Shown here: positions 2,045 through 47,997 of the stretch, piece by piece | How the letters are laid out: each line of letters opens with the position of its first letter | How positions within the stretch are numbered: position 1 is the first letter of the stretch | Virus record (IMG/VR): IMGVR_UViG_3300032257_000021 | Location: 1 to 48,978 of that record | Length of the DNA: 48,978 nt | Strand: one strand, 5' to 3' | From: a virus | Taxonomy: Duplodnaviria > Caudoviricetes | The notes under the pieces: model-generated | The model's database searches: none | What the model saw: the letters and a program-made list of their open reading frames with translations, nothing else | Told to the model about the DNA's origin: nothing | Program-made: the position numbers and the translations under genes

Positions 2045-2297
2045 ATGTCCCTGTTTTATTATCGTAAGGGCAATTAGTACCAATTTCATTCCATGTAGTG
2101 TCACCCTCTTTCAAGAGAGGGATGACAGTTTTTAAATACTCGCTATAGCTCTTGTTCTTTAAGTCACTTCTTAGCATGGGAAGAAAGCTCTCCCCATCAG
2201 AAGCCACCATACTTTGAATAACACCACACTGAGCTACAACATACAAACTGGCAGCATTAGTCGTCATCCCAATCAACATTAGTGTTGTTAATAGCAT
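2043..2297 (-). CDS. Secreted/membrane hypothetical protein, possible lysis accessory
   Basis: Signal-peptide-like N-terminus MLLTTLMLIGMTTNAA; overlaps the holin 3' end. Confidence 0.5.
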   Translation of the reverse strand: MLLTTLMLIGMTTNAASLYVVAQCGVIQSMVASDGESFLPMLRSDLKNKSYSEYLKTVIPLLKEGDTTWNEIGTNCPYDNKTGT

Positions 2298-32133: not shown

Positions 32134-32162
32134 ATTATAACATATTTTTCTTCTTTTGTCAA
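32134..32162 (-). promoter_or_regulatory. Sigma70 promoter for the structural arm
   Basis: Minus strand TTGACA-17 bp-TATAAT with an extended -10 TG. Confidence 0.85.
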
Positions 32163-32408: not shown

Positions 32409-32490
32409 GGCAAACAGTCCGCATTATTATATTATAACATTGTTATATTATCCGCAATTTCAGTACATTAGAATGTATTAAACATCGTTG

Positions 32491-32533
32491 AACGTGTTGC
32501 TAAAATGCAACAACGTGTTGTTATAATACAACA
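32491..32533. repeat. Tandem 21-bp repeat of palindrome TGTTG-N8-CAACA
   Basis: AACGTGTTGCTAAAATGCAAC / AACGTGTTGTTATAATACAAC. Confidence 0.7.
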
Positions 32534-32540
32534 TCTATGT

Positions 32541-32556
32541 TGGCATGATATGTGCA
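32541..32556 (+). promoter_or_regulatory. Sigma54 -24/-12-like site
   Basis: TGGCATG-ATAT-GTGCA with GG-N10-GC spacing. Confidence 0.55.
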
Positions 32557-32672
32557 TATCTATTATCGTTCTCTTATATTCTCAATAGGCGGCCTGTAAG
32601 CCGCTCTGAGAGCTTGCATGTCTAGTCCTTGTCTTGGTATTAAAACAAATACTTCTACCTAAATTGAATTGT

Positions 32673-32688
32673 TGGCATGCTTTATGCA
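32673..32688 (+). promoter_or_regulatory. Sigma54 -24/-12-like site
   Basis: TGGCATG-CTTT-ATGCA with GG-N10-GC spacing. Confidence 0.55.
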
Positions 32689-32792
32689 TGCATGAAATGT
32701 GATAGTATGTAGCGGTACAGCTTGCTATATATAGTATAGACATGATAAGTATTATTTATGGCAGGTATAAAAACATTTAATGATAATATCCC

Positions 32793-32820
32793 TTGCATTT
32801 TAATTATAACGTGCTATATT
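32793..32820 (+). promoter_or_regulatory. Early sigma70 promoter overlapping a palindrome variant
   Basis: TTGCAT-16-TATATT with extended TG; close similarity to the promoter at 44564. Confidence 0.6.
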
Positions 32821-32849
32821 TAGTACAGACATTAACGAAGGGGTATGAC

Positions 32850-32969
32850 ATGAGTAAATACAAACATAGAATACAAGATATTATACTAGCCCGCGTTATG
32901 CGCGGGCAAGGCTGGGACAGGGGACGTTGTACCAATCCTCCTTATTTTGCAAGATATATGAATAAATAA
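32850..32969 (+). CDS. First early gene, 39-aa basic peptide (not in ORF track)
   Basis: AAGGGG RBS; MSKYKHRIQDIILARVMRGQGWDRGRC... Confidence 0.5.
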   Translation: MSKYKHRIQDIILARVMRGQGWDRGRCTNPPYFARYMNK

Positions 32970-32972
32970 CCC

Positions 32973-33002
32973 TTGACATTTGAATTTGTAACACGTTACA
33001 AT
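32973..33002 (+). promoter_or_regulatory. Early sigma70 promoter overlapping a palindrome
   Basis: TTGACA-18-TACAAT; TTGTAACACGTTACAA at 32986-33001. Confidence 0.7.
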
Positions 33003-33038
33003 AGACACACATTAATTAAACATTTGGAGTATTACATT

Positions 33039-33656
33039 ATGACTAAGCAAACAAACAACACAGTAAAAACAATTCGCCTTTCTTCTCCTTTATTACGTGT
33101 ATTGCGTGAAGGGGGCAAGGCGCAACAATCTATCCAGTCAACATACACTAACGCATTAGAACTATTGTTAGTTGATAAGGAAAATATAGAATATGATAGT
33201 AATGCCTTTACACAGGCTTTTGATGAGATTAAAACCAAGTACAGTATTGAAAACGGTCAGGATAGTAAAGGCAATACAAAGTATAAGACAAGTGAAGAGG
33301 GTAATGGGCTTGCGTCACAGCTACGAACAAATCTAAGACGGGCGGCTAAACAGGCAGAAGCGGAAACCAGTTTTACAGTTAAACATAGTCCCAAACGTGG
33401 CTCATATGTAGAGCCTGTTGACTGGAAAGAGCCAAAGAAAGAAAGCGAGCTTGTCAAAAAGATGAAGAAATTTGTGGAAACAAAAGATGAGAATCTCGGC
33501 AATGATATTGTAATAGCCGTGCAAATGGCTATACTTGAAAGACTAGAGCTTGAAGAAATGGCCGATGAATTAGATGAAGAGCACAAGGCAGTATGTGAGA
33601 GCATAGGCAAGGCAGAAAGCAACATGAAAGCCAAGCGAGCACAACAAGCAGCATAA
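33039..33656 (+). CDS. Early protein with possible N-terminal ribbon-helix-helix domain
   Basis: GGAG RBS before ATG 33039; KTIRLSSPLLRVLRE...S..ALE resembles the CopG pattern. Confidence 0.6.
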   Translation: MTKQTNNTVKTIRLSSPLLRVLREGGKAQQSIQSTYTNALELLLVDKENIEYDSNAFTQAFDEIKTKYSIENGQDSKGNTKYKTSEEGNGLASQLRTNLRRAAKQAEAETSFTVKHSPKRGSYVEPVDWKEPKKESELVKKMKKFVETKDENLGNDIVIAVQMAILERLELEEMADELDEEHKAVCESIGKAESNMKAKRAQQAA

Positions 33657-33712
33657 TGTAACATGTTATAATGCCCCTTTAATTAGGGGCAAGGGGATAA
33701 ACAGGTGATAGT

Positions 33713-34132
33713 ATGAAAAACTTAAACCAAGCTATTATTGACATAGCACCAAGGTATAATGTCTCAGACAATGCCCCGAATACGTGGGAAGATTTGCAAG
33801 CTGATTATAAAAAACATGGCATTATTACTGTCTTTGCTGGGGCATGTGAAAGGTCAATATACAATAATGTTGATGTAAACCATGCCTTTAGAGCATGGCA
33901 TGATAAGATACATTTAGAGCATGGCTTATCCTTCTCATATGAGGATGAACTAGAGGTAGCACGTATTCATTGTGCTGCACTACCTAAGTATGCCGATGTT
34001 CTATGGGCTGATGTTGCTGGGCAAGTATGGTATTATTATAAATACGGCAAGTATGTAAAAGACCAAGCGGCATTTGTTAATGCCTTTATAACGTGTTATA
34101 ATTACGGAGAATTACCAAGCTATGAAAATTAA
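33713..34132 (+). CDS. Hypothetical protein with NHAFRAWHDxxH putative metal-binding motif
   Basis: His/Asp helix motif followed by a downstream Glu. Confidence 0.65.
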   Translation: MKNLNQAIIDIAPRYNVSDNAPNTWEDLQADYKKHGIITVFAGACERSIYNNVDVNHAFRAWHDKIHLEHGLSFSYEDELEVARIHCAALPKYADVLWADVAGQVWYYYKYGKYVKDQAAFVNAFITCYNYGELPSYEN

Positions 34133-34322
34133 ACAAACAGATTATGAAAAGAGAATGACGGCAGAGCAATGGCTTGCCTTTATAACACAAGTGTATAAAT
34201 ATCCAAGCTGGCTATTTGATAACAAGCTAAGCATGGCTAGTATGATAGTATGTCGGAGCAAACAAGGGGATATGTACATAGTTAAGAAGGGTAATACATT
34301 TATATCGTTGGAGGAATCATGA
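34122..34322 (+). CDS. Hypothetical protein
   Basis: GGAG RBS; coupled. Confidence 0.55.
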   Translation: MKIKQTDYEKRMTAEQWLAFITQVYKYPSWLFDNKLSMASMIVCRSKQGDMYIVKKGNTFISLEES

Positions 34323-34486
34323 ATAAATTATATATATTAGTTGTTATCACATGGCTTATTGTGTTAAGCTCTTTAATATACAATGTATATGACGGTTATA
34401 ACACTGTTATAACAGAGAGACATAATAAATTAAATGACATAAATGTAAAAACAGAAGATGTTAGCCCTAAAAACCGCTATCAATAG
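34319..34486 (+). CDS. Small membrane protein (55 aa, not in ORF track)
   Basis: GGAGG RBS, ATGA overlap, N-terminal TM helix. Confidence 0.55.
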   Translation: MNKLYILVVITWLIVLSSLIYNVYDGYNTVITERHNKLNDINVKTEDVSPKNRYQ

Positions 34487-34496
34487 GAGAAGTAAC

Positions 34497-34781
34497 ATGG
34501 AAACAAAAGTCACATATGTAACGGCTATTGACGCTGTATGGAGTAGGGGTACAAAGTCTTATAGTATAATAGCGCGACTTGTACCAGTTAAACTTGATGA
34601 TGTTATGGTGAGTAATGCTGTATTTGACACTGCTCTGGAGGTACATGTTAACGATTTAGTAATGGTAACAAGAGAAGAAGGTGTTATTCCCAAAATAGTG
34701 AAGGTGGTGAAAAAACGACCTCCTTACCCTGAAATAGAGACAAGGGTAGCTCAGGCATTTCTAGAATTGAGGGAGAAGTAA
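34497..34781 (+). CDS. Stand-alone NAD-dependent DNA ligase OB-fold-like protein
   Basis: PVKLDDVMVSNA and NDLVMVTREEGVIPKIVKVV match LigA OB motifs; AGGAG RBS. Confidence 0.65.
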   Translation: METKVTYVTAIDAVWSRGTKSYSIIARLVPVKLDDVMVSNAVFDTALEVHVNDLVMVTREEGVIPKIVKVVKKRPPYPEIETRVAQAFLELREK

Positions 34782-34782
34782 C

Positions 34783-34965
34783 ATGAAAATTTATATATTA
34801 ACAATGAGGGGATATGGTCAGAAGCATATCGTTGGTGTTTATGATAGTAGGCAAGCAGCCGAGACAGTAAAGGACAGCGTAGAGCATAACGAAGAGGGTG
34901 TGTGGGGTAAGCACTACGGAGAGATAACAGAGCATGAACTGCAAACAGGGCAAGACAGTGAGTGA
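34783..34965 (+). CDS. Hypothetical protein
   Basis: MKIYIL...IVGVYDSRQAA; GGGAG RBS. Confidence 0.6.
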   Translation: MKIYILTMRGYGQKHIVGVYDSRQAAETVKDSVEHNEEGVWGKHYGEITEHELQTGQDSE

Positions 34966-35236
34966 GAAAGTATTTTTTCATTGTCGTTCTAGGGATATGT
35001 GGGACGTAATAGGGTGCATTACAGGTGTTAGAGCTTCATCTTATGATGAAAGGTATGCATGTCGTAACTTCGAGGCTAGCGGGTATGTTGGTTTTTCAGG
35101 GAGAGAGTGGAGCAGAAAGGGTGGGTATGAAGAGATTGATCTAGAGTGGGAGCAGAAAATTCTAGACAACATGACAAAAGAAGAGATAAAAAACTTTAAA
35201 GCTAAATTGAAAGGAGAATACCATGAGAAGCGATAG
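34958..35236 (+). CDS. Hypothetical protein
   Basis: GTG start inferred from overlap. Confidence 0.5.
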   Translation: MSEKVFFHCRSRDMWDVIGCITGVRASSYDERYACRNFEASGYVGFSGREWSRKGGYEEIDLEWEQKILDNMTKEEIKNFKAKLKGEYHEKR

Positions 35237-35594
35237 ACATTTTGAAGAGCAAGAAAAGCCTTTTGTTGTATTCAGTACAACTAGTGGTTATGTACCAAAA
35301 AGCTTTCCTTATGTGTGTAAGTCTGTATTGGGCTGTTTTGACAATGGGCAAGAAGACAGTTTTATAACATGTTATAATGGCTTTGAATGGCTAAGAGATT
35401 ATTTAGCCAGTGATGGTCAGCAGTATTATTTATATGTTGATAGCTTTAGGAATGCTTATTTATTACACATCAATGAAGAAGTGGGGAATAGTGAGCCTGT
35501 AGGCAAGTTTCAAAGGGCAACAGAGCAAGAGGCTAAGAGCATGTCAGCATGGACATATGATAGTAGTGGTGATGCGTATTGGGTGGTGAAATGA
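35223..35594 (+). CDS. Hypothetical protein
   Basis: AGGAG RBS. Confidence 0.65.
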   Translation: MRSDRHFEEQEKPFVVFSTTSGYVPKSFPYVCKSVLGCFDNGQEDSFITCYNGFEWLRDYLASDGQQYYLYVDSFRNAYLLHINEEVGNSEPVGKFQRATEQEAKSMSAWTYDSSGDAYWVVK

Positions 35595-35935
35595 GCAGGA
35601 TAATACAGCCTTTTGACATTGTGAGGGATTCATTATGCTACTATGTAGTATTGCCTAAAGTCGATACTGATACAGAGTTTGTACTGGTGAATTTGACTAG
35701 GCAGCGGGTAGGTAATTATACGTACACAGCCGAAAATGCGGCTGTGGCATTTTCAAAAGGTGTGGTGTGTAACATAGCAGATATATTATATTCTTTGCCG
35801 GAAAAGCTTGACAATCCTAATAATTTAGTGGATGATATACCAGACTACAAGGCAAGGTGTGCGCATGCATTGGCGATGGCACAGAAGACAGGGAGTAGAC
35901 AGCAAGTAATACGAATTTTGAAGGGGCAAACATGA
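35591..35935 (+). CDS. Hypothetical protein
   Basis: ATGA overlaps on both sides. Confidence 0.6.
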   Translation: MSRIIQPFDIVRDSLCYYVVLPKVDTDTEFVLVNLTRQRVGNYTYTAENAAVAFSKGVVCNIADILYSLPEKLDNPNNLVDDIPDYKARCAHALAMAQKTGSRQQVIRILKGQT

Positions 35936-37659
35936 ACATAAATATTAATGCAATACGTAAGCAAATGAGAGCATTAGCTTCTCATTCAGGACTGATAATT
36001 AAAGAGGAGGACAGAGAACAACCACGTACAGATGGGAGGACGTTATATATACCACGTTACAATCCCTCATGGTCTAAAGATCAGACGACATTATGGTGGT
36101 ATTATACAATTCATGAGATGGGGCATAATAGGCCAGAAACTAGGGATTGTTTTGATATACCAAAAAAATATAAAATATCAATGAGCAGTTTTATTGGTGG
36201 GTGTCTAAATTTGTTAGATGATAATAGACAAGAGCATAGCATGTTTGGAGAATATGCTTTCATCAATCAGACAATAGGCAAGGGGAGGAGAATATTCCTT
36301 GATAAGCAGCTTAAGGAAGGGTCTGCTAATATGGGGACAGGAGACGATCATAGACAGGCGATGGAAGCATTGTATGTGTGGGACACCCTGATTAGGGAAG
36401 AATGGCTTACAGAGCTTGTAGGAGCTTCTGGTGAGATGATGTCATACATGAGCAAGCAACAGCTTGATTGGATAGAGGCATTAAAGGCTGGTGATTATAA
36501 CACTGTTATAAATAAGCAAGGGCTTACAGCTGAAGAGGAATATATATTAACTAAGCGTATCATTGATGAAGTGTTTAAATTTGACAGTGAACAGGAGGAG
36601 CAAGATGGCCAAGACCAACAGAAAACCGAGGGGGGAGAGGAAGCTAACACTGGGGAATGTAGTGAGGAAGGTGAAAGAGGACAATCCCCAACTAACGGCA
36701 AAGGAGATGAAGATGGTGATGCTAGAGGCAAGGAAGCTGTTTCTCAATATGAAGACCTGATAATGCATTCTCATGGGGCTATCACTAGCTTTAGTCCTTT
36801 GGTGCTAGACTACACTAAGTATGAGGAGATGGAGGGATATGCCTCACAAGGCAGCAAGGTAATAGACTACGAGAAAGGAGAAGAGAATGGAGGAGAGTGT
36901 GTAAAATATACACAGTTGATAGAGGATGCTAGTGCAGGGAGGGGACTGCCCAATCGTGTAAGGAGACTGCTACAGATACGGAGTAAGGACAAGCGTACAT
37001 ATGGGCATAAGAGTGGGAAGATACATGGTAGTAGTTTATATCGTATTGGTATGAAGGAGGCAGTGGGATTTAATGAGCGCATATTTAAGCGTAAGGAATC
37101 AAACTTAAGTTTGGATGTGGCTGTATCTGTATTATGTGATTTCTCTGGTAGTATGGGAGGGAATAAGATGGTGTCAGCAGCTGCTTCATGTGTATTATTG
37201 TCTGGTGTATTGCAGACATTAGGGATTAAGCATGAGGTGTTGGGCTTTACAGCCAGTGGAAAGCCTATTAATTACATGTTTAAGAGTTTGGATAAGAGTG
37301 TTAGTAGGGAGAAGCTTATAGCTAGGCTTGCCAATGGGACTAATTACATGGGGAATAATGCCGATGGAGAGAGTATATTATGGGCATACAATCGCTTGAC
37401 ACAAGCACGAGCTAAGCGTAAAATACTCATTGTCTTATCTGATGGACAACCTGCCTATCACAATGGGACAGGCAGCATAACGACATTCACGAGAGATGTT
37501 ATTAATAGGGTGGAGAAGGAGAGACATGTGGAAATTGTAGGAATAGGGATTGATAGTCATGCTGTAGAGAAGTATTATGACAGCTACAGTGTGATTGATG
37601 ATAGCAGTATGTTAGAATCAGCCCTGTTTGATGTCATTAAAACTAAAATCATTATTTAG
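35932..37659 (+). CDS. CobT-like VWA-domain protein with N-terminal HExxH domain
   Basis: PRTDG, HEMGH, acidic linker, MIDAS DFSGSM, NADGESILWA and LIVLSDGQP. Confidence 0.85.
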   Translation: MNININAIRKQMRALASHSGLIIKEEDREQPRTDGRTLYIPRYNPSWSKDQTTLWWYYTIHEMGHNRPETRDCFDIPKKYKISMSSFIGGCLNLLDDNRQEHSMFGEYAFINQTIGKGRRIFLDKQLKEGSANMGTGDDHRQAMEALYVWDTLIREEWLTELVGASGEMMSYMSKQQLDWIEALKAGDYNTVINKQGLTAEEEYILTKRIIDEVFKFDSEQEEQDGQDQQKTEGGEEANTGECSEEGERGQSPTNGKGDEDGDARGKEAVSQYEDLIMHSHGAITSFSPLVLDYTKYEEMEGYASQGSKVIDYEKGEENGGECVKYTQLIEDASAGRGLPNRVRRLLQIRSKDKRTYGHKSGKIHGSSLYRIGMKEAVGFNERIFKRKESNLSLDVAVSVLCDFSGSMGGNKMVSAAASCVLLSGVLQTLGIKHEVLGFTASGKPINYMFKSLDKSVSREKLIARLANGTNYMGNNADGESILWAYNRLTQARAKRKILIVLSDGQPAYHNGTGSITTFTRDVINRVEKERHVEIVGIGIDSHAVEKYYDSYSVIDDSSMLESALFDVIKTKIII

Positions 37660-37669
37660 GAGAATTATT

Positions 37670-37825
37670 ATGAAGCGTACAACTATGGTTTATATACTAT
37701 TGTTTGTGTATGCTGTAAATTTAGGGCTGAATTTAGCAATAGACTTTACAGAAATTCGAGCTTGGGGAGGATGGTTATGTGCTATCTTAGGACAACTAAC
37801 CCTATTAGGCTATGTAGAAGACTAA
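37670..37825 (+). CDS. Small two-TM membrane protein
   Basis: AGGAG RBS; two hydrophobic segments. Confidence 0.55.
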   Translation: MKRTTMVYILLFVYAVNLGLNLAIDFTEIRAWGGWLCAILGQLTLLGYVED

Positions 37826-37861
37826 TTATAACACGTTATAACTAACCAAAAGGAAATAGAT

Positions 37862-38938
37862 ATGTCAAATCAATATGAAGATCTAGTAGCACAAGCATTT
37901 AACAATTTAGGTGGTGAAGTGCCAGAAAGGAAACCTAAGAAACAAGAGCCAACTAAGCCTGATTTCGAGGGAGAAGTCAGCACGTTAGAGGGAGATAGCA
38001 GCTTTAAGGCAGTGTTTGGGATTGATGCCCCTAGTGGTATGGAGCACGTAGGAGAGGTGTATAAGGATAGTGATTGGCCTGAATATCTACAAGCATTCAT
38101 CCCTGACAAAGCTAAGTTTGCCAATTACATGCCCTCCCCTCAAAAGCTTGAGGAATATTGGGTGGCCTATAACATGGGAGATAAGACATTTGCAACAGGG
38201 CCGACAGGCTCAGGTAAGAGTAGCTTCTTTGAATATTGGTGTGCTATGGTGAGACAGCCCTTCCTACGTTTCAATTGTCGTGAAGACATGGAGAGCAGCT
38301 CTATATTCGGACAAATGACAGCGAAGGATGGTAGTACACATTGGGAAGATGGGCTATTGACACAAGGATTTAGAGATGGGGCTATGTTGTTATTGGATGA
38401 AGTAAGTCTAATGCCAGCTGGTATTAGTATGGGACTGCAATGGGTGTTGGAAGATGGTGGTAAGCTCATGCTTACAGACAAGCCCGGAACACCAGCTGAG
38501 AAGCTCGTAGAGCCTGATGTACGTGGAAGAATATGTATGGCAGATAATACCCGTGGGTATGGGGACGATAGTGGTGCATACGCTGGTACAAACGTTATGA
38601 ATACTGCTACACTCAATCGTATTAACACGTTCATGCACTTCGACTATCTCGACAGGAATGCAGAGATAGAAATACTACTGGCAGCTTATGATGATTTAAC
38701 CCCACAATTAGCTAAAAAGATTGTTATGTTTGCTGAATTGGTGCGTAAAAATTACGATCAAGATGAGCTAGATCATACGTTCAGCCCTCGTGACCTGCTA
38801 GGCTTAACAAAGAAAGCCCTGTATTTTAAGAGCTTTGGTAAGGCTGTTAAGATGTCATGGCTAGAGAAATTCTCTGGCATGGAGCAGCAAGAGGCTATCA
38901 AAGGGCATTACAAGACAGTATTTAATGAAGACATGTAG
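37862..38938 (+). CDS. CobS/MoxR-like AAA+ ATPase
   Basis: GPTGSGKS, LLLDE, NTRGYGDDSGAYAGTNVMN and SPR sensor motifs. Confidence 0.88.
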   Translation: MSNQYEDLVAQAFNNLGGEVPERKPKKQEPTKPDFEGEVSTLEGDSSFKAVFGIDAPSGMEHVGEVYKDSDWPEYLQAFIPDKAKFANYMPSPQKLEEYWVAYNMGDKTFATGPTGSGKSSFFEYWCAMVRQPFLRFNCREDMESSSIFGQMTAKDGSTHWEDGLLTQGFRDGAMLLLDEVSLMPAGISMGLQWVLEDGGKLMLTDKPGTPAEKLVEPDVRGRICMADNTRGYGDDSGAYAGTNVMNTATLNRINTFMHFDYLDRNAEIEILLAAYDDLTPQLAKKIVMFAELVRKNYDQDELDHTFSPRDLLGLTKKALYFKSFGKAVKMSWLEKFSGMEQQEAIKGHYKTVFNEDM

Positions 38939-38946
38939 GAGTTGGT

Positions 38947-39186
38947 ATGATGGATATTAAAACTGGTGATATTTACATTGATAGTGCTGGGTTTATTTGT
39001 CTCCGTGGTGTTATGGATGATGGTGATGATATTTATAGAGATGTGATATGGAAGAATATAAATATTGAGGCTAACCTCAGAGACTGCTTAGCTAGGATTA
39101 TGACGAATGATAATGTTGACTTCCCTGTTAAACTCTTGGGTAATGTTAATGACATTATGCTTAAGCTATTGGAGGAAAACGAATGA
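38947..39186 (+). CDS. Hypothetical protein (paralog family)
   Basis: IKTGDIYIDSAGFIC...NVNDIM. Confidence 0.6.
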   Translation: MMDIKTGDIYIDSAGFICLRGVMDDGDDIYRDVIWKNINIEANLRDCLARIMTNDNVDFPVKLLGNVNDIMLKLLEENE

Positions 39187-39413
39187 CAATTGAATTAAAA
39201 CCCGGTGATGTGTATGTTGATAAGAGTGGGTGTATATGTATTCATCTCGTAGCAGATACGGAGGACAAGCCCCCTCACACTGCCTATTGGAAGAACGCTT
39301 GGAAAGCCTTGGTGTATTTAAAAGGGAATAATGATGAGACAGAGGCAGTGTTGCTTAATATAAACGAGCTTATGACCTCGTTGTTAGACAAATATAATAA
39401 GGAGAATAAATAA
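39183..39413 (+). CDS. Hypothetical protein (paralog family)
   Basis: LKPGDVYVDKSGCIC...NINELM. Confidence 0.6.
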   Translation: MTIELKPGDVYVDKSGCICIHLVADTEDKPPHTAYWKNAWKALVYLKGNNDETEAVLLNINELMTSLLDKYNKENK

Positions 39414-39589
39414 TGAGTAGATGTAAAGCTTGTGATAAAGCACTGGAAGTACATGAAAGCATGTGGGATGAGGAGAAACAAACACATGACGATATGTGCC
39501 ATAAATGCAGAGCTAAATGCTATATTGAAGAGGAAGACAATGGTGTTGATGATTTGCTAAACATGTATATTGATGATGAGGGATGTTGA
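39413..39589 (+). CDS. Small zinc-finger protein (58 aa, not in ORF track)
   Basis: MSRCKACD...DMCHKC, acidic tail, AAGGAG RBS. Confidence 0.65.
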   Translation: MSRCKACDKALEVHESMWDEEKQTHDDMCHKCRAKCYIEEEDNGVDDLLNMYIDDEGC

Positions 39590-39590
39590 C

Positions 39591-40427
39591 ATGACTATAA
39601 ATTTCAAGCCCTATATTGATATGATGGAGGAGCTTGAGGAAGAGGAGCAGGTACATCTAAACCATGAGGATTGTCCTGCCGGACATGACACAAAGAAACG
39701 TTTATATATTAAACGTACAGGAGATTATAATGGAAGACATAATTATATTGCTTATTGCCAACATTGTTCTAGCGGGGGTAGGTATGTCAGCCCTCTACTT
39801 GCACATAAGAAGCCTAGACAGGCAGTTGTGGCTACTACAGCAAATGGTAGGAGGAGGTTTGTACTACCAGCAGATTTTACTGGAGATGCTAGAAGCTGGC
39901 CAGCAGGGGCAAGGGTGTGGCTCTATAGATATGGAATCACAGACGCAGAAATCAAACACTACGGAATCGGATGGAGTGAGGAAAGGGGACGAGTAGTATT
40001 GCCTGTGTACAATGACGGAAAGCTTGCATTATATCAGACAAGACGTATCAGAAAGTATGATAGTAAGCCTAAGTATTTAACATACAGGAACGAGAGTAGG
40101 CTCTTTATAACACGTTATAATGTGGACACATGTGTTATAACAGAAGACTTTCTCTCAGCTATTAAATGTGGACGCTTGACAAATACAGCAGGGTGTGCAT
40201 TACTAGGGGCAAGCTTGCAAGACAAGCATATATTAACATTGTTGTCAAGCTTTAATAAATTTATTATATTTCTTGATGATGACAACAGCCAAGTGAGGAG
40301 AAGTCAATTGAAAATTAAGCACAAATTAGAATTATTTGCCAGTGTTAGACTTATATCTGGAGACACTCATCCGGGAGTTGACCCAAAAGAAATGTCTGAT
40401 GAAGACTTGGAGAAATTATTATGTTAA
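39591..40427 (+). CDS. DNA primase (Zn-binding + TOPRIM)
   Basis: HxxC...CQHC, PKY, VITEDFLSA and FLDDD motifs. Confidence 0.82.
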   Translation: MTINFKPYIDMMEELEEEEQVHLNHEDCPAGHDTKKRLYIKRTGDYNGRHNYIAYCQHCSSGGRYVSPLLAHKKPRQAVVATTANGRRRFVLPADFTGDARSWPAGARVWLYRYGITDAEIKHYGIGWSEERGRVVLPVYNDGKLALYQTRRIRKYDSKPKYLTYRNESRLFITRYNVDTCVITEDFLSAIKCGRLTNTAGCALLGASLQDKHILTLLSSFNKFIIFLDDDNSQVRRSQLKIKHKLELFASVRLISGDTHPGVDPKEMSDEDLEKLLC

Positions 40428-40663
40428 AATTATATAGAAACTCTGGTGGGTATTATATCATAGCTGACATAGACAGAAGAATTTCTCTTCATTTATATGA
40501 GCGTTGTAGTAGTGATATGCATAAGGGAATTTTTAATGAGGATTATGTGAAGGGGCTGGAGTTCGTAGAAGAGGATATTGATATAAACAGAGTGCTTAGC
40601 GCACTTGTTCCACAGCTGGATAAGTATTTTACTGTGGAGGGTGTATTTCCTCCTGAGAGTTGA
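40421..40663 (+). CDS. Hypothetical protein
   Basis: GGAG RBS; coupled. Confidence 0.55.
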   Translation: MLKLYRNSGGYYIIADIDRRISLHLYERCSSDMHKGIFNEDYVKGLEFVEEDIDINRVLSALVPQLDKYFTVEGVFPPES

Positions 40664-40688
40664 CATTTGAATAAAAGCATGATATAAT
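40660..40688 (+). promoter_or_regulatory. Sigma70 promoter upstream of the helicase
   Basis: TTGACA-17-TATAAT with extended TG. Confidence 0.85.
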
Positions 40689-40712
40689 ATTAATTAAGAT
40701 ATTAGATAATAA

Positions 40713-40800
40713 AGATATTTAATATACATATATTCTCTTAAAGAATATATGTTCTAGATATTTAATATACATTATTTTCTTTTAAGGAAAATAATGTTCT
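40713..40800. repeat. Two tandem ~44-bp AT-rich units, each with an 11-bp hairpin
   Basis: AGATATTTAATATACAT...TGTTCT occurs twice; the stems differ but stay paired. Confidence 0.75.
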
Positions 40801-40813
40801 AAAGGAGAATTTA

Positions 40814-42064
40814 ATGGAATTAGATATTATTCAATATTTGTCTAACAAAGACAATTATAATAATTATTATAAATACATAAAAGAACATACATTAACAAAA
40901 GAGGGCAATACTATTCTGTCAGACATAGGGCAGTGGTATATGGATGACAGCACAAGGGAGGATGTAGATTGGCCTAGCTTCACTACATGGTTTAAATGTA
41001 TAAAACATCCACAATACAAACAAGAGCAGCTTGAATTATATCAGAAGATATTTGACAGGTTAGACGAGCATGAAGAGGATGAGACATTAACAGAGCAGCT
41101 TATTGAGCATTTCATTGGGCTTGACTATTTCACTAAGATAGCAGACGTAGCTAACAGAGGAGCAGAGGGGGATGACAGTGCTACGTTAGAGGACGTAGGC
41201 GACCTTGTACGGGAGTATCACACGACAGCAGGGAAAATGGCAGAAGGGGACAACTACCTTGTTACAGACGATTTCACAGACCTTGTAGAGAGCACAACAA
41301 CAACAGGGCTGTCTTGGAGACTGCCAGACTTTAACAAAGCTTTAGGAAAGCTTAGGCATGGCAATCTTGTGATAGTGGCTAGCAGACCAGACAGTGGTAA
41401 GACAAGCCTCATGGCTAGTGAGCTGTCATTCATGGCAGAGCAGCTAGAAGAAGATCAGAATGTTGTTATATTAGCTAATGAAGAGCCGGGCAAGGCTCTT
41501 AAGAAACGTATTGTCTGTTCTGCTTTAGGCATAACAGCAGCAGATATGGATGCTGCCCCTCTGGTGGCAACAGACAGCTATATGAAATTGTATGGACGTA
41601 TGGATAAAATTAGGGTGTTTCATAACAGCTCAATGGACATTAATTTTGTAGAGAAAGTGTTGAAAGAGAATAATCCGGGTTTGATTATAATGGATCAATA
41701 TTGGAGGATACATGGATATGAGAAAGGCAGCGCTGGTGAAGTGGATAGACTTGGAAAGATGTTTAAACGTGCAAGGGAATTGGCAAGCCTATACGCTCCT
41801 GTTCTTGCTGTTCATCAATTAGATGGTGCAGCAGAAGGGATGAAATATCCGGGCATGAATCATTTGTACGGCACTAAAACTGTAGCACAAGGGGATGCTG
41901 ATGCAATTATATTATTAGGGCGTTGTTATGAACCGGGGTATGAGAAGAGTCGTTTCTTACATATACCAAAGAACAAGCTTGCAAGTGAGGATGAGAGTAT
42001 GAGGAATTTAAAGAGTGAAGTAGAATTTGAGCCAGAAATAGCACGCTTTAAGAGTATGTTATGA
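40814..42064 (+). CDS. DnaB-like replicative helicase
   Basis: SRPDSGKTS Walker A, ANEE, IIMDQ, HQL and KNK motifs. Confidence 0.88.
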   Translation: MELDIIQYLSNKDNYNNYYKYIKEHTLTKEGNTILSDIGQWYMDDSTREDVDWPSFTTWFKCIKHPQYKQEQLELYQKIFDRLDEHEEDETLTEQLIEHFIGLDYFTKIADVANRGAEGDDSATLEDVGDLVREYHTTAGKMAEGDNYLVTDDFTDLVESTTTTGLSWRLPDFNKALGKLRHGNLVIVASRPDSGKTSLMASELSFMAEQLEEDQNVVILANEEPGKALKKRIVCSALGITAADMDAAPLVATDSYMKLYGRMDKIRVFHNSSMDINFVEKVLKENNPGLIIMDQYWRIHGYEKGSAGEVDRLGKMFKRARELASLYAPVLAVHQLDGAAEGMKYPGMNHLYGTKTVAQGDADAIILLGRCYEPGYEKSRFLHIPKNKLASEDESMRNLKSEVEFEPEIARFKSML

Positions 42065-42069
42065 CCCTT

Positions 42070-42097
42070 GTAGGTTCAAGTCCTGCCGACCGCACCA
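42070..42097 (+). other. Isolated tRNA 3' fragment (T-arm, acceptor strand, CCA)
   Basis: GTAGG-TTCAAGT-CCTGC-CGACCGC-A-CCA; no 5' half upstream. Confidence 0.7.
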
Positions 42098-42119
42098 TTA
42101 TTAAAGAGGATATGTAGAT

Positions 42120-42380
42120 ATGAGTGAAGAATTGAAAGCGTGTCCCTTTTGTGGTGGCAATGATATACGTTTTTCATTAAAGACAAGAGGAGTAAGAGAA
42201 ATTAAATACCATGCCACGATGTATTGTAATGATTGTCATTGTTACGGGAAACGAACATTAACACAATCAATTCCATCCTCTAATTATTCTGGCCGAAGGG
42301 CTATTAAGAACGACAAGACAGTACAGGAACTAGCTATAGCTGCATGGAACACAAGAACCCTGCCTGAAGTGGAGGAATAA
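42120..42380 (+). CDS. Lar-family (restriction alleviation-like) zinc-finger protein
   Basis: ELKACPFCGG...CNDC...AIAAWNTR. Confidence 0.75.
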   Translation: MSEELKACPFCGGNDIRFSLKTRGVREIKYHATMYCNDCHCYGKRTLTQSIPSSNYSGRRAIKNDKTVQELAIAAWNTRTLPEVEE

Positions 42381-43579
42381 TGAATATAAACAATGTATTG
42401 ATATTAGACTTAGAAACAAGTATTAAAAACAGAGGGGAGGATGCAATAGGAAAGAACAAGGCAAGCCCGTTTGATAGGAATAATAATATTGTAGCAGCAG
42501 GCTGGAAATGGCACAATCAAAATATTATAACACGTTATAAAGGTATGACTAACGAAATGTTCGGTGGAATGGGAGGCCCTTTGGAATGCCTTGTAGGGCA
42601 TAACATTAAATTTGATTTGTTATATTTATTACAGAGGGATTTTCCACATGTAAGGGAATGGTTTAATGAGCCTCATACTATATGGGACACACAGCTTGCT
42701 GAATATCTATTATCAGGGCAGACAGCTCTATATCCTACATTAGACTATTGTGCCGAGAAGAGGGGAGGCACATTAAAAGACGATAGGATTAAGGAGTATT
42801 GGAATGAAGGGGTGGATACAGAGGACATTCCTAAAGAACAGCTATTGGAATATTTAAAGCATGACGTTAAGAATACAGAAATTGTATTCCATTCTCAATT
42901 GCTAGAGGCTCAACAGAGGGGAATGCTCCCTTTGATATATTCTCAGATGAAAGCCCTCAAAGCAACAATAGAAATGGAGAACAATGGACTTACATTCAAT
43001 AGACAGGGGGCATATGAAGAAGCACAAAAATTAGCAAGGATACAAGACAATAACATAACAGTAGCAAAAACCTTCATGGCAATACATATGCCCGGTATGA
43101 CTTTTGATGACATCAATCCCTTGTCAAACGACCAAGTTAGTGCTGTTTTATTTGGGGGTGGGTATAAGCTTAAGACAGACAAGGCTGTTATAGACGACTT
43201 GGGAGAGGCTATAGTATATAAGACAGGCAAGCGTAAGGGAGAAGTTAAGACAAAGAAAGCATTAGTAGAAATGGAAACAATGGGAATGCAAGCAGACACA
43301 AAATACACAACACCTGCTAGTAAGGCAGGATATTATTCTGTAGATGTTGGTGTCTTGAAGAAGCTCAAGGGGCAGTATGCTGGCACTATATCCACCTTCT
43401 GCAAAAAGCTACTAGAAATAAGACAACTGTCTAAGGATATTAACACATACTATATAGGATATGGGAAGCTTGTATGGCCTGATGGGAGAATACATGGCAA
43501 ATTAAATCATTGTAGTACAGCAACAGGAAGGCTCGCCTCCAGTGAGCCGAATTTACAGAATGTTAGTGGAGGAGATTGA
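42380..43579 (+). CDS. polA: DNA polymerase A, N-terminal part (3'-5' exonuclease + thumb)
   Basis: DLET, GHNIKFD, WDT and YLKHD exonuclease motifs; HGKLNHCSTATGRLASSEPNLQN. Confidence 0.9.
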   Translation: MNINNVLILDLETSIKNRGEDAIGKNKASPFDRNNNIVAAGWKWHNQNIITRYKGMTNEMFGGMGGPLECLVGHNIKFDLLYLLQRDFPHVREWFNEPHTIWDTQLAEYLLSGQTALYPTLDYCAEKRGGTLKDDRIKEYWNEGVDTEDIPKEQLLEYLKHDVKNTEIVFHSQLLEAQQRGMLPLIYSQMKALKATIEMENNGLTFNRQGAYEEAQKLARIQDNNITVAKTFMAIHMPGMTFDDINPLSNDQVSAVLFGGGYKLKTDKAVIDDLGEAIVYKTGKRKGEVKTKKALVEMETMGMQADTKYTTPASKAGYYSVDVGVLKKLKGQYAGTISTFCKKLLEIRQLSKDINTYYIGYGKLVWPDGRIHGKLNHCSTATGRLASSEPNLQNVSGGD

Positions 43580-43580
43580 T

Positions 43581-43730
43581 ATGACAACACATGACAATAA
43601 TGTATTAACATATGACAATATAATAGAAGCAGAATATGACCAATGGAAGCAACAGCTAGAGCTAGAGCAACAGGAGCAAGAAAACGAGCTCCTGTCTGAT
43701 TATACGGAGGAAGATGAATGTCCGACATAA
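43581..43730 (+). CDS. 49-aa acidic peptide between the polymerase halves
   Basis: GGAGGA RBS; D/E/Q-rich. Confidence 0.55.
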   Translation: MTTHDNNVLTYDNIIEAEYDQWKQQLELEQQEQENELLSDYTEEDECPT

Positions 43731-44560
43731 AGAAGTTCTTTACAAGCAGATGGGGAGAGGAGGGGTACATTGTAGAATGTGACTTCTCTCAGTTAGAAAT
43801 AGCTGTCCTTGCATATTTAACACAAGACCCACAGCTAATGGAAGACTTAAAAGAGGGGGTGGATGTACACAGTATTAATGCACAACATTTATTTGGGAAG
43901 AATTTTACAGACAAACAGAGGAAGATAGCTAAGAGCTTAAGCTTCCAGCTCCAGTATGGAGCAGGGGCTGCAAGCATGGCAGAGTCTAACGGTATTCCAC
44001 TAAAGAAAGCAAAGGAGTTTATATCACATTATTATTCACGCTATCACGAAGTGAAGGCATGGCAAGACATGATAGCAGACAATGTAAAGAGAAACAGAGC
44101 TCCCTCTCATAAGAGGACAGCAGGAGGACTACCAGCAGGCAAGAGTGTTATAGACAGCGAGACAGGGAGATGCTATTCCTTTCATGAATACGATGCTCCC
44201 TCTTTCATGAGAGAAAGGGGGGTAGACGCAAGCTTTTCCCCTACACAGATGAAGAACTACCCGGTGCAGGGCTTTGCTACAGGGGACATTGTACCTATGA
44301 TAGTAGGTGAGCTATTTGATGTCCTGAAAGCCTCTCCTGCGCTCTCTAAGCAAGCCCTATTGGTTAATACAGTGCATGACAGCATTGTACTAGATGTACG
44401 ACAGGAGGTGTTAGACGAGGCTATAGAAACAACACTAAAAGTAATGGAAAGTGCACCAAAATTATTGCGAAAATATTTTGGCATTACATTCAACATGCCT
44501 TTGCCAGCAACAGCGAGCTTTGGAAGAACATGGGGACACCAAGTGGATTATGTGAGATAA
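43718..44560 (+). CDS. polA: DNA polymerase A, C-terminal catalytic part
   Basis: Motif A DFSQLE, motif B RKIAKSLSFQLQYG (Phe762 type), NYPVQG, motif C VHDS. Confidence 0.92.
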   Translation: MSDIKKFFTSRWGEEGYIVECDFSQLEIAVLAYLTQDPQLMEDLKEGVDVHSINAQHLFGKNFTDKQRKIAKSLSFQLQYGAGAASMAESNGIPLKKAKEFISHYYSRYHEVKAWQDMIADNVKRNRAPSHKRTAGGLPAGKSVIDSETGRCYSFHEYDAPSFMRERGVDASFSPTQMKNYPVQGFATGDIVPMIVGELFDVLKASPALSKQALLVNTVHDSIVLDVRQEVLDEAIETTLKVMESAPKLLRKYFGITFNMPLPATASFGRTWGHQVDYVR

Positions 44561-44563
44561 TAG

Positions 44564-44592
44564 TTGCAATTTTAATTATAGCATGTTATAAT
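44564..44592 (+). promoter_or_regulatory. Sigma70 promoter overlapping a palindrome variant
   Basis: TTGCAA-17-TATAAT with extended TG; TTATAGCATGTTATAA at 44576. Confidence 0.75.
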
Positions 44593-44639
44593 ATAGGTAT
44601 GAAGAGTGAGAAATTAATTTAAACAGAGAGGAAGAGAAG

Positions 44640-45122
44640 ATGATTAAAGGTGTAGTGGAAGGTGTATCAAATAATTATGGTAAGTTTAGCGTACTGATTG
44701 GTGGCGTGTGGTATGGCACTAAGGCTGAGTATGCTACATTCCAAAAGCCAGAGAAGGGTGATGAAATTAGTTTTGATAATGGAGGAGACGGTAAGAAATA
44801 TTTACAGAAAGTAACCATTGTTAGCTCCGGGAATGCCCCTGCCGCTAACAATTCGTCCTCAGCAGTGGCTGGGAAGCCAGCAGCACGAGGTGGATATTCC
44901 CGTGGAAGCTTTCCAATTGAGCCTTTAGATGGACAGCGTAGTATTATACGACAGAATGCTGTTACGAATGCTAATAGCTTCCTTTATAATTTTGGTACAA
45001 GTAGTTCAATTCCTCCCACAGTAGAGGATTTAATAGACATTGCTAGACAAATAGAAGCTTATACAGCAGGAGACTTAGACAGAGAACGAGCTAAGGAATT
45101 AGCAGAAGCTGAGGAGGGATAG
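44640..45122 (+). CDS. Putative single-stranded DNA-binding protein
   Basis: OB-like N-terminus, flexible linker, QRSIIRQNA, acidic tail; between polymerase and exonuclease. Confidence 0.5.
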   Translation: MIKGVVEGVSNNYGKFSVLIGGVWYGTKAEYATFQKPEKGDEISFDNGGDGKKYLQKVTIVSSGNAPAANNSSSAVAGKPAARGGYSRGSFPIEPLDGQRSIIRQNAVTNANSFLYNFGTSSSIPPTVEDLIDIARQIEAYTAGDLDRERAKELAEAEEG

Positions 45123-45123
45123 T

Positions 45124-45360
45124 ATGCCAGACTTTACAGACGGTAGTGCAAGTGTGTATGATGTTCTCTACTATTATGATGATGAAGGTCAGGATTATGA
45201 GACATATGCTGATCAGTGTACCTATGAAGAAGCTAAAAAAGAGGCACAGGAGTTTGTAAAACGCAATCCCTCCTATACTGTCTGGGTTAGTGGGCCTCAT
45301 GTAGTGTACACAGCAACTATAGCAGAACCTAAAGTTAAAACACAGGTGATTGTAAGCTGA
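45124..45360 (+). CDS. Hypothetical protein
   Basis: GGAGG RBS. Confidence 0.55.
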   Translation: MPDFTDGSASVYDVLYYYDDEGQDYETYADQCTYEEAKKEAQEFVKRNPSYTVWVSGPHVVYTATIAEPKVKTQVIVS

Positions 45361-46085
45361 TGCTTGCCCTTATAGACATGGACATCCTTGTTTATAGCTG
45401 TGGCTTTGCCTCTGATGCGGAAGCTAAGAGGCAGGGCTTGGAGCATGAGCCTTTGAATTATTGTCTACAAATTGTCAATCAACTCATTGATAGAATTGTG
45501 TTGGAGACACAAGCAGATGACTACAAGGGATATTTAACAGGCAAGAATAATTACAGAGAAGAGCTTGCTGTTACGTTGCCTTACAAGGGCAACAGGGACA
45601 CAAGCCATAAGCCTTATTGGTACAAAGAAATTAAGAAATATTTAGTTTCACATCATAACGCAGAGATAATTGATGGGATGGAAGCAGATGATAAGCTAGG
45701 CATTGAATGTACTAAGGACAATACCAACACTGTCATTGCTACAATTGATAAAGACTTACGCATGATAGAGGGCTACCATTACAATTGGAGGAAAGGCAGC
45801 CATGTAGACCATGTAACAGAAGCAGAAGGCACTAAATTCTTCTACACACAGCTCTTGACAGGAGATATGACAGATAATATACAAGGCATTCGGGGCATAG
45901 GCCCCAAGAAAGCAGAGAAAATATTAGCTGGGTGTATAACAGAGCGAGAATTATATTGTGCTGTAGGTAATGCATATGCTGTAGCATACGATAGTCCAGA
46001 AGAGGTGATGAAAGAAATGGCTGACTTATTATGGATACAGAAAAGGGAGGGGGTGCTGTGGCAACCACCAATGAAGAGCGCATAA
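45360..46085 (+). CDS. 5'-3' exonuclease (T7 gp6-like)
   Basis: IDMD, YKGNR, EADD, DKDL and GDMTDNIQGIRGIGPKKA motifs. Confidence 0.9.
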   Translation: MLALIDMDILVYSCGFASDAEAKRQGLEHEPLNYCLQIVNQLIDRIVLETQADDYKGYLTGKNNYREELAVTLPYKGNRDTSHKPYWYKEIKKYLVSHHNAEIIDGMEADDKLGIECTKDNTNTVIATIDKDLRMIEGYHYNWRKGSHVDHVTEAEGTKFFYTQLLTGDMTDNIQGIRGIGPKKAEKILAGCITERELYCAVGNAYAVAYDSPEEVMKEMADLLWIQKREGVLWQPPMKSA

Positions 46086-46432
46086 TTATTACAGGGACAC
46101 AGACAGATAAAACTTACCATGAATTTAATTGCTCATATGAGTATAGAGTTTGGTGTAGATATGCAGCAAGTACGACAGACACTTTTAATCTGAAAGAGCT
46201 TATTGTTCATAAATCTGTAGCAAAAGAGCTATCTTCAAAATATATTGACGAGGAAGTTTGGGTGGAACTCTCCAGAGAGCTTGCTATAGGCATAAAGGAA
46301 GCACACCCTAACGCTGCGCTTATTCCCTGTCCTGATGTACTGGGAAACACTCCTCTTATAACTATACCACAAGAGGATGCTTTTGTAGTGGCAGGTCGTT
46401 ACGGTATGGGCGTTCTTAGGAGTCCTCCATAA
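46058..46432 (+). CDS. Hypothetical protein
   Basis: GTG start after GGAGG inferred. Confidence 0.5.
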   Translation: MATTNEERIIITGTQTDKTYHEFNCSYEYRVWCRYAASTTDTFNLKELIVHKSVAKELSSKYIDEEVWVELSRELAIGIKEAHPNAALIPCPDVLGNTPLITIPQEDAFVVAGRYGMGVLRSPP

Positions 46433-46812
46433 TGGGAAGAAAAACACCACCATTCACAAACTACCCACGATGGACAGAGGCTAGATTTTGGTCGTTCATA
46501 CGCTCTGCCTTACGCAGAGCTTGGATGAAATATCCTGTCAAATACACTGTCCTCTCTGCCAACAGGAAGAAATATACAGGGACAGACAAGAGAATTAAAT
46601 GGACATACACATGTGAGATATGTGAAGAAGAGAAGATGCAGAAGGAAATAGAGGTGGATCACATAGAGCCAGCAGGTAGCTTAAAATGCTATGAAGACTT
46701 GCCCGGATTTGTGGAACGTCTCTTTACATCAGAAGACAAACTACGTGTAATTTGTAAGCCTTGTCACTTAGAGGTGACGGCTGAAGAGAAAAGGAGAATC
46801 AGTGATGGATAA
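46432..46812 (+). CDS. HNH endonuclease
   Basis: FIRSALRR, CEIC, VDHIEP and CKPCH motifs. Confidence 0.8.
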   Translation: MGRKTPPFTNYPRWTEARFWSFIRSALRRAWMKYPVKYTVLSANRKKYTGTDKRIKWTYTCEICEEEKMQKEIEVDHIEPAGSLKCYEDLPGFVERLFTSEDKLRVICKPCHLEVTAEEKRRISDG

Positions 46813-47497
46813 TACAATAATTATTTCAGATACACATGCTCCCTACCAACACAGGGATACGCTGCCCTTTCTAGCTGCTATCAAGGAGGAGTATGACATT
46901 AAAATAGCCAAGCACTCAGGAGACTTGGCTGACAATCATACAGCTTCCTATCATGAGATAGAATACGGCACATTAAGTGCCGAGAAAGAATATCAACAGA
47001 CAATGCTGTTTGCTAAACAGCTTGAAGAGATATATCCCGACTTAACTATTGTGTTAGGTAACCACTGCAAGCTTACACATAGGAAAGCTAAGACAGCAGG
47101 TATACCAGAGGATCATCTCAAGAGCTATAACGATGTGTACGGAGTGAATTGGACATGGAAGGACAAAGACTATTTTAAAATAGACAAATTTAATAATTGT
47201 CTTTTAACACATGCACAGAGCAGCTCTACATTGCAGAATGCAAAGATACATTCACATTGTACCATTCAAGGGCATCATCATGGGACATTTGGTATAGAAT
47301 ATTTTGCTGATACAGAAGCATTACGATGGGCTATGACTGTAGGCTGTCTCGTAGACCCACATAGTCCTGCTTTTAATTATGCTAAAGGGAACACAAGCTC
47401 TCGCCCCATCTTAGGATGTGGCAGCATAATAGAAGACAGGCCAATATTAATTCCTATGCAGCTTAAGAAGAGTGGGAGATGGAACGGGGTGGTATGA
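46805..47497 (+). CDS. Calcineurin-like metallophosphoesterase
   Basis: SDTH, GDLAD, GNH, TH and GHHH motifs. Confidence 0.85.
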   Translation: MDNTIIISDTHAPYQHRDTLPFLAAIKEEYDIKIAKHSGDLADNHTASYHEIEYGTLSAEKEYQQTMLFAKQLEEIYPDLTIVLGNHCKLTHRKAKTAGIPEDHLKSYNDVYGVNWTWKDKDYFKIDKFNNCLLTHAQSSSTLQNAKIHSHCTIQGHHHGTFGIEYFADTEALRWAMTVGCLVDPHSPAFNYAKGNTSSRPILGCGSIIEDRPILIPMQLKKSGRWNGVV

Positions 47498-47498
47498 T

Positions 47499-47666
47499 AT
47501 GCACACATTAGATGAACTACTGGCAATTATCAAGGAGCGTATAGACCCTGATGAACTGATTGATATTCTAGGGCTAACGACAGATGATTTGGTACAAGAG
47601 TTGTTTGAGAAAATAGCAGACAACAGAGATAAAATAATTGAATACTTGGAGCTGGAGGATGAGTAG
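47499..47666 (+). CDS. Small acidic hypothetical protein
   Basis: DPDELIDILGLTTDDLV. Confidence 0.6.
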   Translation: MHTLDELLAIIKERIDPDELIDILGLTTDDLVQELFEKIADNRDKIIEYLELEDE

Positions 47667-47997
47667 TAATATAACACCCTACGAAATACAAAGCATTAAA
47701 GAGGGGCTTTATAGACAGCTGAAGACGAGGCTAAAAGAAGATGTTAGGGACGCTATATCACCTGATGCTACAACAAAGGCCCAGACTGCCACCGGAAGAA
47801 TAAAAAATATCAGGGGAATACACCCTTACATAAGCAGCTATACAGTGACACCAGCACCAAATATGCCATTTGCTTGGGCAGATGTTAGTGCGATTATAAC
47901 ACGTTATAATGTAGAAGACTTAGCTGACTTAGAGAAAAGACTAGATGCATTTGACAAATTGAAAGGGTTTTTAGGAGAATTGAATGAGCAGGATTGA
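47659..47997 (+). CDS. Hypothetical protein
   Basis: GGAG upstream of ATG; overlaps the previous gene. Confidence 0.55.
   Translation: MSSNITPYEIQSIKEGLYRQLKTRLKEDVRDAISPDATTKAQTATGRIKNIRGIHPYISSYTVTPAPNMPFAWADVSAIITRYNVEDLADLEKRLDAFDKLKGFLGELNEQD

Follow-up and report, generated by a model that had tools for sequence, protein, structure and literature searches.

The early genes of the phage studied here carry an array of short dyads, TTATAAC-N2/3-GTTATAA, which judged from sequence is real, selected and widespread. The window, i.e. the whole stretch of 48,978 nucleotides analysed (IMG/VR record IMGVR_UViG_3300032257_000021; Caudoviricetes), holds eight perfect and six variant copies, all of them on the early arm (~19 kb), and the identical dyad marks the early genes of 16 non-redundant virus clusters. 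The contig is circular, with a 127-bp overlap between its ends, and has two convergent arms: an early arm of 18,972 bp on the plus strand, running from ~32,400 across the contig junction to 2001, and a late, structural arm of 29,879 bp on the minus strand. Because of this circularity, the site found at position 970 belongs to the early arm.

Extent and placement of the array

A number of observations argue for selection on the dyad. First, 100 dinucleotide shuffles of the sequence gave no perfect copy, and five of the eight perfect copies are TTATAACACGTTATAA or its reverse complement. Second, the early and late arms contain 8 and 0 sites without mismatch, 11 and 0 with up to one, 15 and 0 with up to two, and 25 and 2 with up to three (binomial P of 5e-4, 3e-5, and 7e-7 for zero, one, and two mismatches); the fifteenth hit at two mismatches, at 32124, is merely a half-site within a leftward promoter. 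Third, seven perfect sites are intragenic, against 0.54 on average and at most 4 in 2000 synonymous-codon resamplings of the early genes, a null model that keeps the proteins fixed and hence already concedes the motif-encoded peptides. Fourth, the half-site TTATAAC occurs once in the late arm, where 5.95 occurrences are expected (P 0.027, 300 shuffles), and its ratio of observed to expected counts is the lowest of 140 heptamers of the same composition. An earlier sequence-only reading of the window had listed these fourteen sites and seen none in the structural arm; all fourteen are present where it put them. The five longest pieces listed are matched without differences by contigs of one public run, which may be where this DNA comes from and hence does not count as independent evidence. 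Its impression of a dense start followed by sparser sites was also right: the gaps widen along the arm, starting at 180-670 bp and reaching 2-3.3 kb (Spearman 0.88 for gap against distance), and the first 13 of 36 genes hold 9 of the 14 sites (P 0.03 against gene density). The spacer has two bases in ten sites and three in four, and it occurs in both orientations without preference. By placement, three sites are on promoters, two at gene junctions, one upstream of all early genes, and eight within genes.

The ladder opens with a variant site (N3; 32432..32448) directly downstream of two 9-mers, which we take to be DnaA boxes. The next variant (N2; 32804..32819) covers the spacer and -10 element of a promoter of the extended -10 type (32793-32820), which is weak and followed by a 39-aa open reading frame (ORF), and a third, the symmetric TTGTAAC-AC-GTTACAA (32986..33001), covers the same elements of the promoter TTGACA-18-TACAAT (32973-33002) of gp1, the first large early gene (33039..33656, plus strand; 205 aa), whose stop codon is overlapped by a further variant (33656..33671). 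Perfect sites then follow at the 3' end of the gene at 33713-34132 (34086..34101; peptide FITCYN), where the site overlaps a promoter-like sequence (34074-34102); in the gene at 34319-34486 (34396..34412, N3; GYNTVIT); in the SAM lyase gene at 35223-35594 (35362..35377), which encodes FITCYN for the second time; in the CobT/VWA gene (36495..36511, N3; DYNTVIN); between a stop codon and the ribosome-binding site of CobS/MoxR (37826..37841); in the primase gene (40105..40120; FITRYN); and in the N-terminal DNA polymerase gene (42525..42540; IITRYK). Another variant (44576..44591) covers the spacer and -10 element of the promoter TTGCAA-17-TATAAT (44564-44592). The last two sites are a perfect one in the ORF at 47638-47997 (47894..47909; IITRYN), 125 bp upstream of the RNR gene, and a variant in the 3' part of the RNR gene beyond the contig junction (970..986, N3; YNTAI). 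The peptides that had been assigned to the primase, polymerase, and VWA proteins were thus located correctly, and only IITRYN had been misplaced in RNR, as it belongs to the 119-aa ORF upstream. The claim that three sites lie over -10 elements is sound for the promoters at 32973 and 44564, with match scores of 11/12 and 10/12, and less so for the one at 32793 (8/12, extended -10); the scan listed 60 of 78 hits, among which are 32973, 44564, and 34074 (10/12) and not 32793. Two perfect sigma-70-type promoters lack a full site: that pointing towards the structural arm (32134..32162, minus strand) has the half-site only, and that before the helicase (40660..40688, plus strand) has none.

The two tandem 9-mers, TTATCCACA, at 32389-32408, are the only ones in the genome and stand near its inferred end; the tandem arrangement was not seen in relatives. 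The genome likely ends near 32,200-32,400, by analogy with phage ICBM1, whose terminal repeat directly precedes the early genes; the contigs compared did not reveal the ends.

Arrays in related and distant phages

We gathered 25 related loci via the primase alignment and found arrays in eight. Two have the same dyad (L210, L213) and six a respelled one: TTGTAAC-N2/3-GTTACAA in L215, TTCTAA-N4-TTAGAA in L221, TAGTATC-N3-GATACTA in L231, and TGTTC-N4-GAACA, with the arm TGTTC(T), in L209, L222, and L223. Another locus (L224) has a single perfect site, and the remaining 16, some of them fragments or near-duplicates, have none. A search for related loci starting from CobS found nothing. In whole genomes, the early arm holds 12 of 15 sites in G006, 16 of 18 in G007, 11 of 11 in G008, and, in G009, 11 of 11 at one mismatch and 12 of 14 at two. 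The gaps widen with distance in all five genomes tested, i.e. the window and four relatives (Spearman 0.75-0.90 in the latter), and 60 of 133 sites in relatives lie directly upstream of a ribosome-binding site. The layout around gp1 recurs in L206, where a gp1 that is 57% identical has a site on its promoter in the same arrangement and a site after a different next gene. No array was found in ICP2, its twin G011, G013, KZY1, ICBM1, or VP41s3, the last of which has a record without most early genes. The helicase tree mixes array-bearing and array-less lineages, G007 adjoining the array-less L218 and ICP2; this tree has 24 rows, with four near-duplicates excluded, and 12 of its 20 inner branches are open, so the order of events is not derivable from it.

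The intragenic sites of relatives are at other residues than those of the window: 227 versus 179 in the primase, 251 and 469 versus 188 in CobT, and 298-345 versus 49 in the polymerase. The window's motif peptides are absent from all aligned homologs (26 primases, 24 polymerases, 8 CobT, and 5 RNR). In CobT, the window reads AGDYNTVINK where a homolog reads AGDYSTVLDE, with no duplicated flanks. The different residues and the lack of shared peptides therefore indicate that intragenic sites arose separately in the lineages, by point changes within stretches that appear tolerant.

Exact-motif scans of viral contigs (one of which covered 6 of 64 parts) revealed many further arrays. At least three sites were present in 53 of 184 scanned loci, which together with seven further loci form the 16 clusters at 90% identity. 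The terminases of several distant bearers are merely 21-22% identical to that of the window. In the distant bearers inspected, the sites are found where the early region begins, surrounding a first gene of 130-216 aa and preceding ribosome-binding sites. A blastn search with one tandem site found no match among 50,697 named phage records, although this is a weak test. The literature searched, which takes in a minority of the subscription papers, gave no account of this array.

Several observations in these genomes stand on their own. In an unrelated phage, four repeated promoter cassettes with TAGTATC-N3-GATACTA over the -10 element precede alanine-rich paralogs (L531:2109-4549). A site lies within the first gene itself at L434:1609-1624 (LITSYN), and one Saccharibacteria and two Methanobrevibacter contigs (L319, L320, L324) hold the dyad in 2-4 copies, of which two are ~60 bp apart. 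In G007, the position occupied by gp1 in other phages is taken by non-coding DNA that separates the first promoter from the first gene (L239:9500-9690); it folds well (z -3.0), with a long hairpin that includes a site, and has no Rfam match. G008 contains a short match to a tmRNA model (66 bits; L215:15517-15595), which may be a tRNA-like piece.

The proposed binding protein and rival explanations

Among 119 sites there are 65 non-consensus pairs, of which, read on the sense strand, 1 is compensated, 11 are G-U, 21 A-C, and 32 other. This pattern fits a protein site tolerant of outer mismatches, not a stem. The compensated pair is the symmetric change at 32986, which had been taken to imply selection on dyad symmetry: the change is there, but it is the only one of its kind. 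Together with the conservation of the dyad, its respelling in relatives, its overlap with promoters, and its depletion from the late arm, the uncompensated outer mismatches speak for the site of a dimeric protein, as had been proposed. We consider it highly probable that the sites are bound by a protein, and repression is, on balance, their likelier main effect. The more specific interpretation, for which the chances seem to us about even, is that they are operators at which a phage-encoded dimer blocks early promoters and impedes read-through. Under this hypothesis, the putative dimer would accumulate early, occupy the promoter sites, and block initiation, while RNA polymerase would be slowed at junction and intragenic sites, decreasing read-through. 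The earliest genes would be damped hardest, owing to the density of their sites, and the leftward structural and helicase promoters, which lack a full site, would stay on. Silencing of the early arm as a whole, as proposed earlier, goes too far, because the perfect helicase promoter has no site; moreover, two relatives have 2-3 sites in the late arm.

The protein itself may be gp1, which is flanked by a site on its own promoter and another at its stop codon; in that case it would act as its own repressor, via the promoter at 32973. Where the left end of an array-bearing contig is visible, the first gene likewise has 130-216 aa and is flanked by sites, whereas the array-less ICP2 and L218 have phrog_1448 as first gene instead. 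The relatives of gp1 are few: searches gave 2 and 4 matches, with 3 among representatives, metagenomes gave two loci, one being the window's own contig, and the hits of the gp1 profile in whole genomes were only the profile's own training rows. The protein has no PHROG, Pfam, or NCBIfam match. Its predicted structure (pLDDT 84) has a confident N-terminal domain of three helices with an inserted hairpin and a C-terminal hairpin, followed by a Lys/Glu-rich linker and C-terminal helices of lower confidence. The flexible link between the predicted N-terminal domain and these helices would permit spacers of two and three bases. The best Foldseek match is PadR (E 0.2-0.4), with several winged-helix rows of the MarR type amid unrelated ones, none significant, and the best VIA match is an unrelated protein (Z 4.9, root-mean-square deviation 2.7, 62 aligned residues). 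A ribbon-helix-helix at the N-terminus was considered and dropped, as neither homologs nor model support it. Since the fold search gave no assignment and the array-bearing G007 has no gp1-like gene, gp1 is a positional candidate only, and we would put its being the binder of the dyads slightly short of an even chance. Other searches for a binder gave no better lead. When 1929 ORFs were compared all against all, the array-bearing phages had no small protein in common; Atlas leads reached at most 0.90 and were unnamed viral clusters, and DUF3102 was on less than half of the members. The first gene of L222 and L223 was ruled out as their binder by its pattern of occurrence, as homologs are present in the array-less G013.

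A number of arguments weigh against operators bound by a phage dimer. First, the helicase promoter at 40660 is unguarded and most sites of the window have no -35 element; in G007, L442, and L215 the first site is upstream of the -35 element and not on the -10. The authors of the study of similar repeats in Cluster O mycobacteriophages argued against control of initiation on such grounds, most sites having no promoter (PMC4351075). Second, G007 has 18 sites with no gp1-like first gene, and the profile matched none of its other ORFs that were searched. Third, the first genes of other bearers resemble that of the window by eye but fall into groups, none of which hhalign joins to its family (probability at most 1.3%), and it would be odd for first-gene binders that cannot be aligned to recognise an identical dyad. 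Fourth, half-sites are not rare in the late arms of G006 (7), G007 (10), and G009 (13), and in G014 the respelled dyad is found along the whole genome.

Some of these observations would be expected under the main rival, a docking ladder for genome entry or protection, whereby the first-made phage protein would bind the left end densely and the remainder sparsely during entry, so as to ratchet, organise, or shield the DNA, repression being secondary; organisation of DNA during entry had also been suggested by the sequence-only reading. It explains the polar gradient of the five genomes equally well and is consistent with a spacer that has no preferred orientation, with most sites lacking promoters, with sites every 1-3 kb over most of the G014 genome, with the presence of the SAM lyase and Lar, both of anti-restriction type, in the same arm, and with the location of the ICBM1 terminal repeat. 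We nonetheless hold it unlikely, given that sites are exactly on -10 elements (32973, 44564, and in L206) and that half-sites are depleted from the window's late arm. It is conceivable, if again unlikely, that both functions are joined in an undescribed system common to podoviruses that lack an RNA polymerase of their own. In it, the protein made first would load onto a polar dyad ladder, dense at the entering end and rewritten into core genes in each lineage. The ladder would couple entry or protection to a graded early shut-off, its 14-bp site being kept in at least 16 distant virus clusters.

A host regulator borrowed by the phage to tune early genes to the state of the cell, with respellings that track the host group, would account for an identical dyad in 16 clusters with unalignable first genes, and for the absence of a gp1 candidate in G007; in its favour, too, the TGTTC-N4-GAACA dyad of L209, L222, and L223 matches the LexA box of Verrucomicrobia. 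Its prospects are poor when confronted with bacterial genomes: perfect sites occur in 14 of 401 genomes, with at most two in each, against 45 for a reversed control, in a sample, searched for perfect matches only, that was drawn from the class of one gammaproteobacterial genome, which may not be the class of the host. An 18-mer form of the motif, searched for in 38 of 64 parts of the species-genome collection, turned up here and there in unrelated taxa, singly or in tandem, and none of the 120 loci checked had a phage-like dispersed array. The eighth base is lineage-specific, being T, C, or G.

This base is central to a further alternative, already raised by the sequence-only reading, in which every site combines two divergent -10 elements of the sigma-70 type, from which a sense and an antisense transcript would start. 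In the window, T completes TATAAT at 18 of 28 positions (9 of 14 on each strand; P 2e-4), and in L206 at six of six; respelled arms (TACAA, TAGAA, GATACT) also resemble -10 elements. The idea thus does well in this lineage and fails in others: the completing T follows the sense arm in just 7 of 116 sites from 16 other sources, which have C or G by lineage. The calculated back-to-back start sites would be 31-32 bp apart, outside the spacings of 18, 29, 23, 12, 10, and 7 bp that are favoured in bidirectional sigma-70 promoters (10.1101/2020.01.31.928960), and likeness to -10 elements is equally expected of an operator that evolved on promoters. Its odds are slightly poorer than those of the host regulator.

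That the sites are crossovers shuffling early gene cassettes is very improbable, except at most as a side use: in L188, L196, and L199 the site and downstream bases are duplicated before different genes, and L206 has a different gene between two sites, but the sites in core genes come from point changes without duplicated flanks, and no recombinase was found among the window genes or the 63 ORFs of relatives scanned. Finally, an RNA hairpin for processing or pausing, which the position of many relatives' sites directly before ribosome-binding sites had made worth considering, is rejected as largely refuted, as 64 of the 65 non-consensus pairs are uncompensated with A-C exceeding G-U, and N2 forms do not fold (0 kcal/mol) while the N3 form reaches -1.9 kcal/mol.

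Genome context, known systems and significance

The early arm encodes small genes, SAM lyase, CobT, CobS, primase, helicase, Lar, a split family A polymerase, exonuclease, HNH, phosphoesterase, and RNR, and the minus arm terminase, portal, capsid, and tail proteins. The best named matches of the polymerase are ICP2-like phages (45%) and that of the terminase is in Cobavirinae (64%; TerL is 56-64% identical to Zobellviridae/Cobavirinae), and by these genes the phage is therefore Zobellviridae-like. It has the two convergent arms of the family, related TerL, portal, capsid, and polymerase, and no RNA polymerase was found. Scanning 70 window ORFs against PHROGs revealed no RNA polymerase, sigma factor, integrase, or named repressor; integrase and partition genes were absent from these and, with Pfam, from 63 ORFs of relatives, among which unnamed ORFs remain. 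An Rfam search of the window gave no match. GC-rich hairpins at the point where the arms converge (2001..2047, no strand) are likely a terminator, by analogy with ICBM1. At 40660-40810, the perfect promoter is separated from the helicase by a very AT-rich gap, in which a 15-bp direct repeat occurs (40713, 40756); this is a possible replication origin. The SAM lyase (35223-35594) and the Lar-like gene (42120-42380) likely have anti-restriction or anti-BREX functions. The polymerase is in two genes (42380-44560), broken at about the position of the HNH insertion of ICP2, its halves being separated by a short ORF as in VP41s3. Two tailspike-like genes (27342-31349) are flanked by the small and large terminase genes.

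The closest known analogue is the 17-bp dyad TGTTCGG-N3-CCGAACA of Cluster O mycobacteriophages, with 34 copies, biased to one end, a third of them intragenic, and of unexplained function (PMC4351075). Both arrays have 7-bp arms, are dispersed between and within genes, are denser towards one end, occur in phages without an integrase, and have a predicted dimeric binder. They differ in that the Cluster O dyad has a fixed 3-bp spacer and genome-wide sites, whereas the window has both N2 and N3 spacers and 14 copies, none in the structural arm, as well as another sequence and host group, overlap with promoter -10 elements, and a dyad common to distant podoviruses. The arm of the TGTTC-N4-GAACA dyad of L209, L222, and L223 (G014) resembles the Cluster O arm TGTTCGG (PMC4351075). 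The stoperators of Cluster A are 13-bp asymmetric sites, oriented with transcription and bound by a monomeric repressor with helix-turn-helix and Stoperator domains in temperate phages (PMC9283540 and PMC6550527). Like them, the array has many sites over lytic genes, at an early promoter and downstream of it, with respelling by lineage and a proposed block of both initiation and elongation; unlike them, it has a perfect dyad with spacers in both orientations, and no such repressor or integrase was found in the ORFs scanned. By this comparison, the array may work like stoperators without being a member of that system, and is a variant of the Cluster O kind. With bidirectional sigma-70 promoters (10.1101/2020.01.31.928960), it shares symmetric DNA with -10-like hexamers on both strands, and differs by a 31-32 bp geometry unreported there and by the sixth -10 base missing in most lineages.

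The genome is like those of ICP2 and Cobavirinae in its convergent arms, in that no RNA polymerase was found, and in the order CobT-CobS-primase-helicase-split polymerase, and unlike those of ICP2, KZY1, ICBM1, and VP41s3 (a partial record) in having the array. The promoter-stem-loop (PeSL) cassettes of T4-type phages are elements repeated where early genes meet, and may help genes to be exchanged; the window has no repeated promoter or stem-loop unit, and half of its sites are intragenic. Other sites considered were the CB-type operator of N15, TTATA-N6-TATAA, and the PsrA type with its variable spacer; a search of the N15 literature gave nothing relevant.

Little is known of how podoviruses that encode neither an RNA polymerase nor a sigma factor time the expression of their genes. 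The array offers a defined site with naturally respelled versions, a candidate protein, and sister phages that lack it, and the answer also bears on the unexplained repeats of Cluster O. The separate placements in primase, polymerase, and CobT genes show that regulatory sites arise repeatedly within essential phage genes.

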